From Staphylococcus phage S6: a stretch of 64,000 bases of DNA. The DNA lies in the sequence record LC680885.1; one strand, given 5' to 3'. The notes under the pieces are model-generated. The model saw nothing but the letters and a program-made list of their open reading frames with translations. It had not been told where the DNA came from and searched no databases. Both the position numbers and the translations under genes were made by a program. Positions 9,008 through 60,831 of this stretch are shown here, piece after piece (position 1 is the stretch's first letter; each line of letters starts with the position of its first letter).

Positions 9008-9044
9008 TCCCAATACCTTAATATTATATTAATAGGTATTGGGA
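9008..9044 (-). terminator. terminator hairpin TCCCAATACCT/AGGTATTGGGA (CCCAATACCT family)
   Basis: 11-bp perfect inverted repeat with AT-rich flanks. The same stem sequence recurs at 38978 and 60793. Confidence 0.55.
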
Positions 9045-9063
9045 TAAAATATTTTATAAAAAA

Positions 9064-9573
9064 TTAAAGACCAAATTCTTTATCTAAAGATTCTTCTAAA
9101 GAACTAATATCTTCATTAGTTTGTTCTTCTTCTTTAACAGCTTCAAATAAGCTAAATAAAGCTTCTTCAACAGGACTTACAACTGAATCAATTTTATTTT
9201 CCATAGCTTCATTTAATTTAGTAGGTAATTTTTTGAATAGAGCAATGTATTTCTTTTCATTATTTCTAGCCCAAGCTTCTGCTTTTTTAGGACTTTGGAA
9301 AGCACATACTCGAATAAAACGATTTAAAATAGATGTTTTACCTTTAGCATCAATTACTCTGTAAGTAAATATAACTGTTCCATCTTCATGAGCATCTAAA
9401 GCAAATTCATTTTCATCAAATTTTTTACCTTTAGCGATAACTTTAGCTTTCTTTTTAGTAGCACGTGCTATGAATTTTTCCTCTGTATCTTTATCAGAAG
9501 GGTTTACCATTTTTCTTAATGTATCCTTCACATTAGCTTCATTTAATAATGTTTCTTGTAAAAAATCTTCCAT
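9064..9573 (-). CDS. hypothetical protein, paralog of the C-terminal domain of the 342-aa protein upstream
   Basis: 169 aa. Ends in SLEESLDKEFGL. Shares ...WARNNEKKYIALFKKLP... with ...WVQSNGNKFVSIFKKAP... of ORF 9615-10643. Confidence 0.55.
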   Translation of the reverse strand: MEDFLQETLLNEANVKDTLRKMVNPSDKDTEEKFIARATKKKAKVIAKGKKFDENEFALDAHEDGTVIFTYRVIDAKGKTSILNRFIRVCAFQSPKKAEAWARNNEKKYIALFKKLPTKLNEAMENKIDSVVSPVEEALFSLFEAVKEEEQTNEDISSLEESLDKEFGL

Positions 9574-9614
9574 AATTATAATTCCTACTTTCGTAATTTA
9601 TTTTTCTATATAAT

Positions 9615-58800: not shown

Positions 58801-60784
58801 AACTAGATTATGGGAATCATTCTCTCAAGGTCCAGAATTCAAAAATAAAGCTCTTAACTTTGAGGTATTTGTCAATAACAAGAAAATTCCTAATAACTAT
58901 GTAACTGTATTGAACTCTAAAGCTATTAAGATAAGTGAAATATCTGGTTATGCTTTAAATAATGTAATGATTAGATTCAATTTCTCTTATGATGAAATGT
59001 TACAGAGAATCATTGATAATTATAAATATAAAACTATTGATGTTAATGAAGATAGATATCATGATGATAGTATTGCTGATATTAAATCTCCATTTGATAC
59101 ATTAACTAGTGGAAAACAAGCTAAGACTTTAGGTAATTTACTAATTATACAATTAATTAACAGTGGTAAAAATATTCTTGATTGTAATGTTGATAATTTA
59201 CCTATAGATGTTAATCTTAATACAGATATTATTGAAAATAGTTATATCAGAAAGAATATTAATTTAGATATGAATAGAACCAATCTTATTAAGACTATTA
59301 ATAAAATTAGTGATTATGTAAATGAAATTCTTGACGTTAATAAAAATAATGAAAACTTACTATTGAATAGTAATAATCCTAGTTTTTATGTGATGAATAA
59401 TAGAAATTTATTAAAGTCTACCGATGATTTTAAGACTAATGAATTTACTGCTGAACTATGGGCGTACAGAGGGTTTAGCGATGAAAACCTAAAAAATGTT
59501 TTTAAAGATGGTAAATCATATACAATATTTTTTGATTTAACGTCAATAAATAAAAACACTGGGGGAGAAGTTAAATATCCTCAATACGGTATAGCTTTAT
59601 ATGATTTTGATAAAAGAGGAACTATTGGATTATCAGTAATAAATGATATAAATTTCCCTGAAAATGAAGAAAAAAGTATGTCTTTATATGTAAGTAGAGA
59701 AAAGTATCCTGATAATCTAGGAATATTATTTTACACTGGTGTAAATTCTACTGATGGGAATGATAGAATACCACAAGTTTCTAGATTTAGAAATATGAGA
59801 ATATTTGAAGTTTATGATGACGGATCATATACGCCTGCACCTGAAGATAAAGTACATTCTCAATATCCTTATTCTAAAATCGATGATTATAATAGATATT
59901 TTGAAAATAAAGAAAGTATTAAAGATGTTCACATTAAAAATAATGATATTCATTTAGATTTTAAAGTGGATGAATCTTTATTAGAAAGAAATAAAAAATA
60001 CACATTCTCATTCTATGCTAGAAATAAATCTAAAGAAGATGTTAGATTTATTAATGAATATTTAGATATGAATTTCTTAATTAAGAAAGATGAATTTAAA
60101 GCTTATGTAGATTATATCTTTATTGATGAAGATATGAATGTGAATGATCTATTATCCCGAAGTAAATTTATTCAAGAATCTGATGAGAAAGATATTCGTC
60201 TAGATTTATTTGGATTTAAACTTGAAAAGGGATTAAATAAGACAGATTATCTTCCTAATATAAATGATTTAGAAGGTGGAGATTTACTTTCTAATATCTT
60301 TAATATAGATGAAAAAGATAATTCAAACCTATTGAATTTAAATGATGATTTCAAAATAGACATGTATAATAAAGAGGAAGATTATATAGGCTTTAACAAT
60401 ATCGATACTTATAATCTAGATAATGATGAATTCTATACGTTATCAATGGATGTAAAAGTAGAAGAAATAAATGATCTAAGTACTAAATCATTATATTCAG
60501 GGTATATTGATAAAGACGGAAATTATACTTCAGCTAAAAATGTCTATTATCTACCATTAGATAAAAACAAAATTAATAAAACTTTTAGAGCTTATTTCAT
60601 ATATTATCTAAGAGATATTAAAAATATTAAATCTTTTGTAGTCAGATCCGGTTATTCTAAAGAGCAATCTTCTAAAAATGATATGAAGTTCAGTAAATTT
60701 AAATTAGAAAAAGGTAAAATAGCTACACCTTATTCTAAAGCAGTGAATACTGTAGAAAATATTATTATAGATCCAGAAATATAA
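55829..60784 (+). CDS. very large hypothetical protein (1651 aa), probable virion or tail component
   Basis: Uninterrupted 4.9-kb ORF. TTG start with AGGAG at -12. Asn/Asp/Tyr-rich beta-type composition. Confidence 0.6.
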   Translation: MSIKLNNELYYNLRDKTRLSKVENTQELVTGSFYTFYNDLLLEIRYDNKIYVYTGYSTQGDHVLELSFLKEELDNDTIEDVFMYDNILVIISEKGYYRCFMDQLTENINNTSAEVIYSYNFYRSSEELNYRPYSLLDDMICIKEANDTLVIRSIKTDAYTKTIVFNKNIEGFSFLYENGLAISFYGEPYHIHVYDFKEEKYTQKFTINENINQYEYDIQHQITRIFKFKNSLYYATRSGRIYRSDIKDKLISSMSYRFYQSGSSIDYIKSYGNYITFSNRSNNILIYNTDYDRKEILKNDYLVKSLAISNFIMVVSLYDSIDEDYKKRIIESGVIPEDINLNPVHKYVMYNPPSIEVLKEKLEYRFDKPEDPLVYINLNIKLAENKLNNFDRSQYRVKLNISHSDNSNVVEESDVKIYKQQGTVKNMYIKIGRKSQWVDNNKLLSLLENGELLYRFTIDNMDNYVTFYNINYPNIGSDFYRHLTDTEVFPDRSPEKSHYDALSEELNIKDIFNGAEDEKVISLLSNLVNEKVIYPSSNLRIDSEDMYLDYPDYDPRRYIDLSNEYPNGQLDTNVINSDVYFDGLKIFKNDILQKDNFDGSVNVYLNHLAMKKYMNDKNYEYTIHDRKLSKHDNFIISNKSRSLYQTEKLMVKHTVTNDYENQTSLLPTKGILLPNTRVNQFKIQNIRVYVKVYNTSENGNEYYHRLNPRNFNLWIDKEYNMLRVAVYGIQIPEGSTLMIMDNGLTNNVILYDKLNYIKRDIDSLPIVEVGPNGELLTELSRRTEDVEVIVDGLTLIPGRDFHVMNTPNDPDIPSLVAFRNVIPNTAKVEITLLNENSSDVYYFKRPAVDTTNVFVLPDDKRIFTNNIYQNDPYKDINLLKDSDEDVITKENVVKEYELLEPLEKNVDYTLTMRGQLPIDIDHLNITSNGTTKSIAEIQSNSYDEDTKTYQVKFKLEDLGDGYNTGLVIRKTQESTRDVKIDWIKLKKESHSTRLWESFSQGPEFKNKALNFEVFVNNKKIPNNYVTVLNSKAIKISEISGYALNNVMIRFNFSYDEMLQRIIDNYKYKTIDVNEDRYHDDSIADIKSPFDTLTSGKQAKTLGNLLIIQLINSGKNILDCNVDNLPIDVNLNTDIIENSYIRKNINLDMNRTNLIKTINKISDYVNEILDVNKNNENLLLNSNNPSFYVMNNRNLLKSTDDFKTNEFTAELWAYRGFSDENLKNVFKDGKSYTIFFDLTSINKNTGGEVKYPQYGIALYDFDKRGTIGLSVINDINFPENEEKSMSLYVSREKYPDNLGILFYTGVNSTDGNDRIPQVSRFRNMRIFEVYDDGSYTPAPEDKVHSQYPYSKIDDYNRYFENKESIKDVHIKNNDIHLDFKVDESLLERNKKYTFSFYARNKSKEDVRFINEYLDMNFLIKKDEFKAYVDYIFIDEDMNVNDLLSRSKFIQESDEKDIRLDLFGFKLEKGLNKTDYLPNINDLEGGDLLSNIFNIDEKDNSNLLNLNDDFKIDMYNKEEDYIGFNNIDTYNLDNDEFYTLSMDVKVEEINDLSTKSLYSGYIDKDGNYTSAKNVYYLPLDKNKINKTFRAYFIYYLRDIKNIKSFVVRSGYSKEQSSKNDMKFSKFKLEKGKIATPYSKAVNTVENIIIDPEI

Positions 60785-60792
60785 TATAAATT

Positions 60793-60831
60793 ATCCCAAT
60801 ACCTTTTTAATATATAATTAGGTATTGGGAT
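60793..60831 (+). terminator. terminator hairpin ATCCCAATACCT/AGGTATTGGGAT (CCCAATACCT family) plus T-run
   Basis: 12-bp perfect inverted repeat followed by tttatt. Confidence 0.6.

Follow-up and report, generated by a model that had tools for sequence, protein, structure and literature searches.

The stretch of Staphylococcus phage S6 considered here (LC680885.1; 64,000 nucleotides, referred to below as the window) carries at the ends of its genes a series of short hairpins, several of which have the same stem. The GC content of the window ranges from 23 to 31% (~25% overall), and most of its large open reading frames (ORFs) have no Pfam match. The 1651-aa ORF at 55829-60784 has a counterpart of 98% identity in Staphylococcus phage PALS_2 (268.7 kb genome) and full-length relatives, at 82-91% identity, in the phages Machias, MarsHill, Madawaska, UFV_DC4, PB50, LY01, AH12, and SA1; more distant matches are found in Bacillus phages and in Listeria phage LPJP1. 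At the DNA level, the window is 98-99% identical to PALS_2 across nearly its entire length. The phage origin proposed in an initial annotation of this DNA is thus borne out by matches of both proteins and DNA to Staphylococcus jumbo phages.

The SA1 annotation names AR9 orthologues, and the published description of the clade groups it with AR9 and PBS1, i.e., with jumbo phages that have two multisubunit RNA polymerases, one of the virion and one non-virion; it also reports an AR9-like early promoter. To judge by these matches, the window is part of an AR9/PBS1-like Staphylococcus jumbo phage. On account of this grouping and its two multisubunit polymerases, the polymerases relevant here are probably the phage's own. 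A giant-virus reading with the Mimivirus "hairpin rule", prompted by the 25% GC and the few Pfam matches, was rejected: AAAATTGA is not enriched, and the proteins match those of Staphylococcus jumbo phages. An Rfam scan of the window returned only tRNA.

Stem families and their placement at gene ends

A census of perfect stems of at least 7 bp, with at least 4 G/C and a loop of 3-24 nt, returned 16 GC-clamped hairpins in the window, compared with 1-3 in Markov-chain controls. Their stems are 10-15 bp long, pairing being 100% by construction since only perfect stems were taken. A folding scan of every intergenic region added one imperfect hairpin, at 43443, for a total of 17. The hairpin sites quoted in the initial annotation all exist, displaced by at most 1-2 nt, and the variants it listed, at 2106-2142, 10711-10739, and 50703-50732, are perfect hairpins. 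The two stems said to recur at three hairpins each do so: CCCAATACCT forms both arms at 9009/9034, 38980/39001, and 60795/60820 (6 matches vs. 0.03 expected), and CCCTAACCT is found at 19679/19699, 21751/21770, and 26690/26709 (6 matches vs. 0.07 expected).

Ten of the 17 hairpins fall into a single CCC-first superfamily. Its CCC(C)TAAC sub-family (CCC(C)TAACC type) comprises the hairpins at 2106, 10711, 19678, 21750, and 26689, and its CCCAATACC (AATAC) sub-family those at 9007, 38978, and 60793; further members are CCCCTAATAC at 50703 and CCCATACAC at 36379. The proposal that the terminators form families of identical stems holds for this superfamily and fails for the other seven hairpins, the stems of which are unrelated or only loosely related. 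The sharing exceeds what base composition predicts, as had been anticipated. Among the 5' arms of the 16 window hairpins, 13 pairs have a common 8-mer or longer, compared with 0.23 in composition-preserving shuffles, and eight have a common 9-mer or longer, compared with 0.05 in shuffles that keep the composition of each arm. Across the whole PALS_2 genome, with 71 hairpins, the corresponding counts are 96 pairs sharing at least an 8-mer (vs. 1.8 shuffled) and 65 sharing at least a 9-mer (vs. 0.18 shuffled).

Arms of 12-14 nt are exactly identical between sites, often together with the 6-nt loop. The consensus of 22 PALS_2 members, anchored on the C run, reads W-W-CCC(C)-(TAA/AAT/AT)-AC/CC-..., with G nearly excluded from the 5' arms (4 of 264 nt); the loops of 14 of the 22 PALS_2 hairpins with a 6-nt loop are exactly AATTAA or TTAATT. 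Paralogous copies are alike only in the stem and sometimes in the 6-nt loop, their flanks being unrelated and their longer loops different, so that the families do not resemble a transposable element. Neither the similarity into the flanks nor the target-site duplications of a mobile element like miniature inverted-repeat transposable elements or repetitive extragenic palindromes (REPs) were seen. The 15-nt loops of the hairpins at 9007 and 60793 agree at 10 of 15 positions, a level of agreement that has no significance in loops made only of A and T. The AACA late-promoter core, looked for by eye, occurs in only a few stem variants.

In the window, hairpins start 0-44 nt past the stop codon of the gene transcribed towards each of them, and all five clear convergent junctions are occupied by one, in keeping with the initial description of hairpins at gene 3' ends, several of them bidirectional between convergent genes. 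In PALS_2, a C-first hairpin lies at 12 of the 14 called convergent junctions, and ~60 of the 71 hairpins fall within the noncoding ~7% of the genome. Folding energies range from -15.5 to -21.6 kcal/mol (z -3.4 to -6.5), and the palindromic hairpins fold alike on either strand. Tails on the transcribed side are T-rich (54-85% T at +1 to +8 vs. 36% genome-wide): TTAT occurs within 10 nt of the hairpin in 22 of 30 tails and a run of at least four T in 18 of 30, compared with 5.8 and 3.4, respectively, in noncoding controls. In the GenBank record of Machias, these hairpins carry terminator annotations, which point both ways where genes converge, and RNA-seq of AR9 revealed strong termination at predicted terminators (PMC5312081). 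Based on placement, folding, T-rich tails, convergent junctions, the Machias annotation, and the AR9 precedent, the recurring stems look like the cores of factor-independent, mostly bidirectional terminators. Neither terminators nor hairpins are mentioned in the preprint on MarsHill, Madawaska, and Machias or in the UFV_DC4 paper, and the word "terminator" is absent from the SA1 RNA-seq paper.

Orthologous sites, rearrangements, and controls

The same families are present in SA1, AH12, and Machias. Orthologous sites were compared in PALS_2, SA1, and AH12, the flanks being 75-87% identical in the latter two. Across orthologs, the stems are kept and the loops vary freely in length and sequence; stem-base substitutions at 2106, 19678, 33615, 36379, and 55760 are compensated. 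Because stem-base changes are compensated while loops diverge freely, the hairpin structure is, by this comparison, under selection. On the initial question of whether stem sequence or only structure is conserved in related phages, stems are kept and their changes are compensated; families switch at orthologous sites, and AR9 has no such families. For example, the SA1 ortholog of the hairpin at 21750 has changed family through three substitutions per arm, all of them paired, and is now a 34-bp palindrome that the SA1 counterpart of the hairpin at 50703 matches exactly.

The loops undergo a further kind of change. At 26689, the loop is flipped from aattaa to ttaatt, at all six bases, both in the ~98% identical PALS_2 and in SA1, and the loop at 50703 is likewise flipped to ttaatt in SA1. 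Loop positions 26701-26706 and 50715-50720 are exact inversions between unchanged arms, which point mutation cannot produce, and this pattern implies frequent intramolecular flipping of the palindromes.

On a larger scale, the segment at 26.7-50.7 kb of the window is inverted in AH12, Machias, and PB50, as read in Machias and PB50 from strand comparison, and is collinear in seven genomes, namely the window, PALS_2, UFV_DC4, MarsHill, Madawaska, LY01, and SA1. The AH12 alignments overlap at q26675-26740 and q50680-50744, which places both breakpoints inside the hairpins at 26689 and 50703. Within AH12, and likewise within Machias, one and the same hairpin (TCCCCAATACCTA with a 6-nt loop) stands at both junctions and differs from both window versions, whereas in the collinear genomes the same two sites differ from each other (CCCCTAACCTTA vs. 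CCCCTAATACTA). More broadly, 11 of the 22 noncoding ends of homology blocks against SA1 and AH12 lie within 30 nt of a hairpin, compared with ~3.3 expected, these ends being paired and thus not fully independent. Inversion breakpoints within hairpins, identical copies at the junctions, family switches to copies identical within the genome, and loop flips argue for exchange at the DNA level, and they favor the earlier suggestion that the hairpins had spread by recombination in the manner of miniature repeat elements. The inverted 24-kb block carries genes for a guanylate kinase, a GroEL-like protein, and a virion protein, and its orientation marks a sub-clade.

Other genomes served as controls. 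In 100 kb of AR9 (GC ~27%), 28 comparable hairpins yielded no pair with a common 8-mer or longer (0.58 expected) and no C-first bias. A GTDB scan of 185,579 species genomes with the AATAC stem gave nine scattered matches, none of them in Staphylococcus, and so the stems do not seem to be borrowed from the host. Scans of IMG/VR with two stems, covering 2.9 million viral contigs with no Staphylococcus jumbo-phage contigs among them, returned only unrelated single-copy matches. Given the AR9 and database controls, the families are clade-specific rather than host-imposed, and phages with homologous polymerases can do without them. Nor does termination appear to need the family sequence, as seven of the 17 window hairpins are built on other stems, orthologous sites tolerate a change of family, and AR9 has no families at all. 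A recurrent stem of a different kind, GAAGCGGTT/AACCGCTTC, is found in the unrelated Staphylococcus phage PG-2021_87 (Twortvirinae; L064 27687-33995), where it forms five hairpins within 7 kb in both arm orders. Since such a Twort-like phage presumably relies on the host polymerase, terminator-stem reuse seems to arise without a special polymerase.

Individual hairpins and neighboring regions

Among the CCC-first hairpins of the minus strand, the TAAC variant at 2106..2142 (CCCTAACGA; ATACCCTAACGA with a 13-nt loop; -18.3 kcal/mol, z -5.9) lies 33 nt past the stop codon of 2176..3126 (-) and is kept in AH12 with a compensatory change (GTCCTAACG). The AATAC hairpin at 9007..9045 (ATCCCAATACCT with a 15-nt loop) begins 18 nt past the stop codon of 9064..9573 (-); its stem is unchanged in SA1 and AH12, where the loops are 9 and 6 nt long, respectively. 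Another TAAC variant, at 10711..10739 (CCCTAACCA; ACCCTAACCA with a 9-nt loop), lies 8 nt past the stop codon of a 1417-aa ORF at 10748..15001 (-) and is represented in AH12 by an unrelated AT-rich stem and in PALS_2 by an imperfect CCCTAATGACA stem. The SA1 ortholog of this ORF is annotated as an RNA polymerase beta subunit. Uninterrupted in the window, the ORF carries in PALS_2, at window position 11915/11916, an insertion of ~1.3 kb that includes a 311-aa ORF and is probably an intron or homing-endonuclease insertion. Nearby, ~460 nt of the window (10124-10585) do not align to PALS_2.

On the plus strand, the TAAC hairpin at 19678..19708 (ACCCTAACCT with an 11-nt loop) is followed by an early-promoter-like motif at 19727-19739 with a predicted transcription start site (TSS) at 19746; in SA1, the base of its stem shows a compensatory A-T to C-G change. 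The AATAC hairpin at 60793..60831 (+), with the same ATCCCAATACCT stem and a 15-nt loop, begins 8 nt past the stop codon of the 1651-aa ORF at 55829..60784, and in AH12 the stem is unchanged and the loop is 6 nt long.

The remaining members of the superfamily are bidirectional. At 21750..21779, ACCCTAACCTTA with a ttaatt loop separates the convergent genes 19794..21743 (+) and 21796..22479 (-) and folds on both strands (-19.2 and -17.8); its SA1 ortholog is the switched version described above, ATCCCCTAATACTA, identical to another SA1 copy. The hairpin at 26689..26718 (CCCCTAACCTTA with an aattaa loop), also between convergent genes, marks the left breakpoint of the 24-kb inversion. The hairpin at 36379..36413 (TACCCATACACTC with a 9-nt loop; -21.6 kcal/mol, z -6.5), between the convergent 34626..36359 (+) and 36450..37610 (-), has a core that is kept in SA1 and AH12, with stem-base changes compensated. 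The AATAC hairpin at 38978..39012 (ATCCCAATACCTA with a 9-nt loop) contains the stop codon of 37717..38991 and is followed by the convergent 39019..39753 (-); SA1 and AH12 have an identical stem with different loops, and a boundary of an AH12 indel lies at q39020/39026. The right breakpoint of the inversion is the hairpin at 50703..50732 (CCCCTAATACTA with an aattaa loop), the outer pairs of which reach 50699-50735; it is located between 49704..50684 (+) and a helicase-like gene at 50740..52494 (-).

Unrelated stems occupy several other gene ends on the plus strand. The hairpin at 16696..16727 (AGGATAACAATCA with a ttaaat loop) begins 7 nt past a stop codon and is followed by an early-promoter-like motif. 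Homology to SA1 and AH12 ends exactly at this hairpin, and the region from 16.7 to 21.7 kb, which includes a tRNA-Asn gene at 19161-19233, is poorly conserved in both; the corresponding SA1 region has a tRNA-Ser in place of the tRNA-Asn. Gene ends are likewise marked at 18921..18956 (TATAATACAGTGACA with a ttaatt loop and a long T tract), at 24783..24806 (GAAGAGAGT with a ttaaat loop and a T tract), at 33615..33646 (GCCGAAACCATT, 3' of a GroEL-like gene), and at 55760..55796 (GAGTCAATCAACT). On the minus strand, the gene-end hairpin at 39788..39820 (GACCTAATAC) is loosely related to the TAATAC stems, and a block of SA1 homology stops at 39820. The imperfect hairpin at 43443..43484 (-) (AAATTTAGATATCGT..., unrelated to the others; -17.6 kcal/mol) is followed by a T tract on the minus strand; no gene is called in the 521 nt upstream of it on that strand, and between the hairpin and the next gene there is a predicted early TSS at 43943 (-).

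A "half-site" at 54622 that had been counted with the families does not belong to them. The sequence in question, GGGGTTAGGGGTTAAG at 54620..54636, is a tandem CCCCTAA x2 on the minus strand without a partner arm and lies within the 5' leader of a predicted early transcript from 54665 (-). It is present in PALS_2, and since it is simply absent from SA1 and AH12, its interpretation as a decayed hairpin was rejected.

Hairpins are also found at the start of early transcripts. The AR9 early-promoter consensus, AAATATATATTAT-N6-G(+1), has 36 matches in PALS_2, and at 22 of these the predicted transcript opens with a hairpin, its first base at +1 to +3, compared with 2.0 in shuffled leaders; none of 16 AR9 promoters has a hairpin at that position. 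In the window, leaders with a 5' hairpin have predicted TSSs at 19746, 22596, and 34575 (+) and at 43943 and 45592 (-), with promoter motifs just upstream. To judge by this pattern, early mRNAs of the clade may carry a stem-loop of their own at the 5' end, possibly as a stabilizer. A second large PALS_2 stem family, G-first (GAGGTAATGACA ... TGTCATTACCTC), comprises four exact copies (37984-38014, 51074, 79187, and 171295) and ~11 variants, with hardly any member in the window; it is this family that supplies the 5'-terminal hairpins in PALS_2. The predicted +1 G of an early promoter is the first base of three exact copies and of several variants, the remaining exact copy (171295) being located between convergent genes. 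In the promoter-linked copies, TAATATATTA and a Shine-Dalgarno sequence come next, which makes up a repeated ~80-bp cassette, much like the early-promoter stem-loops of T4-type phages discussed below. Elsewhere in PALS_2, beyond the window, a cluster of unusually GC-rich hairpins at 24079-24835 lies immediately 5' of a retron-type reverse transcriptase gene (24879-26381) and could correspond to a structured RNA belonging to a retron or group II intron.

Maintenance of stem identity and known precedents

The explanation favored here, with slightly better than even confidence, is that these phages use a small, clade-specific set of terminator palindromes, the likeness of which is kept by selection for pairing together with DNA-level recombination and not by a requirement for sequence. 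Terminators would be drawn from palindromes of the form W-W-CCC(C)-(TAA/AAT/AT)-AC/CC..., often with a 6-nt TTAATT or AATTAA loop. Purifying selection would act on base pairing, and recombination, i.e., gene conversion and template switching between and within palindromes, would act on the DNA, so that no particular stem sequence need be required. As a by-product, the copies would be short, portable homology sites where the genome rearranges. From the comparisons above, recombination rather than selection for sequence most likely maintains the identity of the stems.

Several observations weigh against this explanation. The stop of transcription at the hairpins is one that we infer, and their T tracts are broken up by A; many loops are 9-15 nt long. 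As a result of these long loops and interrupted tracts, a generic terminator scan (loop of at most 8 nt, 5 T in 8) misses most family hairpins. A single large rearrangement was examined, and gene-preserving inversions must break in intergenic DNA regardless. Across the 11 copies recovered (three sites each in the window, PALS_2, and AH12, and two in SA1), the AATAC stem (ATCCCAATACCT) does not vary in its inner 8-10 bp, with flanks only ~80% identical; this uniformity exceeds structural constraint alone and could equally reflect selection for sequence. Finally, recombination alone does not explain the near-absence of G from the 5' arms or their polarity, which is that of the terminator motif of phage phiKZ.

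It is accordingly possible, if distinctly less probable, that the stem sequence itself is read: a C-first hairpin with UUAU would be a dedicated termination signal for the phage's own multisubunit polymerases or a binding or processing site for a clade-specific protein (a termination factor, antiterminator, or RNase). In either version, selection and not recombination would keep the sequence constant. Such recognition would fit an inner stem that does not vary among paralogs and orthologs despite divergent loops and flanks, 5' arms that are always C-first and nearly free of G, tails that are enriched in TTAT and weak by host-terminator standards, and the conserved C-first motif followed by TTAT at 61 terminators of phiKZ, which also has two multisubunit polymerases (PMC10914365). 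It is harder to reconcile with AR9, which has homologous polymerases but, over 100 kb, no families and no preference for C-first stems, and with the unrelated stems of seven of the 17 window hairpins at equivalent gene ends. Sub-family switches are tolerated at orthologous sites, one stem has been replaced by an AT-rich one, loop orientation flips freely, and the Twort-like phage, with what we take to be dependence on the host polymerase, has a recurrent stem family too. No candidate factor was found, nor any evidence for an antiterminator, RNA-binding-protein, or RNase site. More doubtful still is the proposal that jumbo-phage multisubunit polymerases, or a clade factor, read the C-first hairpin with UUAU by its sequence as a dedicated signal for termination or 3' processing, with parallel origins in phiKZ-like and Staphylococcus AR9-like phages. 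If that were true, the CCC...GGG families would owe their persistence to selection for recognition, with recombination among them as a side effect.

A primary role at the DNA level, with the palindromes as cruciform or dimer-binding sites in recombination, replication restart, packaging, or nuclease action and with termination secondary, is improbable. Perfect DNA palindromes make up nearly all of the hairpins, the flipped loops and the inversion attest to activity at the DNA level, and the clade encodes a RusA-type resolvase and homing endonucleases; yet the hairpins are placed strictly a few nucleotides past stop codons, carry T-rich tails on the transcribed side or sides, and are absent from coding DNA and divergent promoter regions, a distribution that is that of RNA 3'-end signals and not of replication or packaging sites. 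The least probable alternative, convergence without homology because 25% GC leaves few stable, bidirectional, misfolding-resistant hairpins (a CCC/GGG clamp plus AT-rich filler), would suit the loose template CCC + W2-4 + AC/CC that is all the sub-families share, the uniform polarity, and the sporadic occurrence of the same 18-22-nt palindromes in unrelated viral and bacterial contigs, but is largely refuted by the exact arms and loops common to different sites, by the 9-mer sharing far above that of shuffled arms in both the window and PALS_2, and by AR9, which shows no convergence at a similar GC content.

The hairpins have parallels in known systems. Small hairpin-loop inversions and quasipalindrome template switching are known in plastid and bacterial genomes. 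As expected of intrastrand template switching or inter-arm recombination, 6-nt loops flip here between near-identical genomes and the arms stay perfect; the difference is that loop inversion is a mutational mechanism and not a class of functional element, and here it acts on putatively functional terminators. Bacterial REPs, bacterial interspersed mosaic elements, and terminators made of uptake-sequence pairs are dispersed gene-end palindromes that double as terminators or RNA stabilizers and as recombination sites. The phage hairpins share with them their small size, their dispersal at gene ends, and the combination of terminator and recombination site; they differ in that there is no evidence of dedicated transposase or uptake machinery, in their number (~20-25 copies per genome), and in the absence of the stems from host genomes.

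Closer precedents come from other phages. In T4-type phages, promoter-early stem-loop (PeSL) cassettes carry conserved promoter and terminator motifs, and recombination between them shuffles modules (Arbiol et al., 2010, PMC2839356; Comeau et al., 2014, PMC4122927). In both systems, short conserved intergenic motifs with a stem-loop terminator are present in many copies in a large virulent phage genome, and recombination between copies yields the rearrangements and indels that separate close relatives, as was found in the comparisons made here; a conserved motif repeated across many intergenic regions is also common to both. The GAGGTAATGACA cassettes of PALS_2, with promoter, hairpin, and Shine-Dalgarno sequence, match even more closely. 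A PeSL, however, is by definition a stem-loop joined with a sigma-70 early promoter, and PeSLs are concentrated in hyperplastic, small-ORFan regions, whereas the CCC-first hairpins are mostly stand-alone bidirectional palindromes at the convergent ends of conserved genes. Of the CCC-first hairpins, only that at 19678 is followed by a promoter motif, as is the unrelated stem at 16696; it is in the GAGG-type cassettes outside the window that promoter and stem-loop form a composite. Furthermore, the stems here are AT-rich with a CCC/GGG clamp, not polyG/polyC, and nearby promoters are of the AR9 virion-polymerase type.

A conserved terminator motif has also been described in phiKZ and 201phi2-1 (Putzeys et al., 2024, PMC10914365; PMC11512511). 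PhiKZ is likewise a jumbo phage with two phage-encoded multisubunit RNA polymerases, and most of its terminators have in common a motif in which a C-rich 5' arm pairs with a G-rich 3' arm and TTAT takes the place of a long U tract; some are bidirectional at convergent genes. In the window, 10 of the 17 hairpins have arms of this polarity, and TTAT occurs in 22 of the 30 tails counted. In contrast to the 12-14-bp AT-rich stems found here, the phiKZ motif, BCCYCCCCHWWDGGGRRGG, is a short GC stem, and the window hairpins do not match its full consensus, BCCYCCCCHWWDGGGRRGGBYTTAT, having only the polarity and the TTAT tail in common with it. The phiKZ 3' ends are experimental, whereas the hairpins described here are known from sequence alone; there is essentially one motif in phiKZ, as opposed to several discrete sub-families with evidence of conversion; and AR9, the nearer relative, lacks any such motif. 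PeSLs and the phiKZ motif are thus the closest precedents, and because most CCC-first hairpins lack a joined promoter and do not match the phiKZ consensus, they are members of neither by sequence or full definition. The reuse of terminator palindromes is, in itself, already known in other large phages.

If the explanation by pairing selection and recombination is true, the hairpins would offer a ready-made map of transcription-unit ends for these phages and a concrete explanation of the 24-kb inversion that separates two sub-clades. They would also offer compact bidirectional terminators for AT-rich Firmicutes and make it possible to test if sequence, or structure alone, is what phage multisubunit RNA polymerases read in a terminator. 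In addition to the T4 PeSLs and phiKZ, these phages would then provide a further case in which large virulent phages reuse a small number of regulatory palindromes that double as recombination sites.

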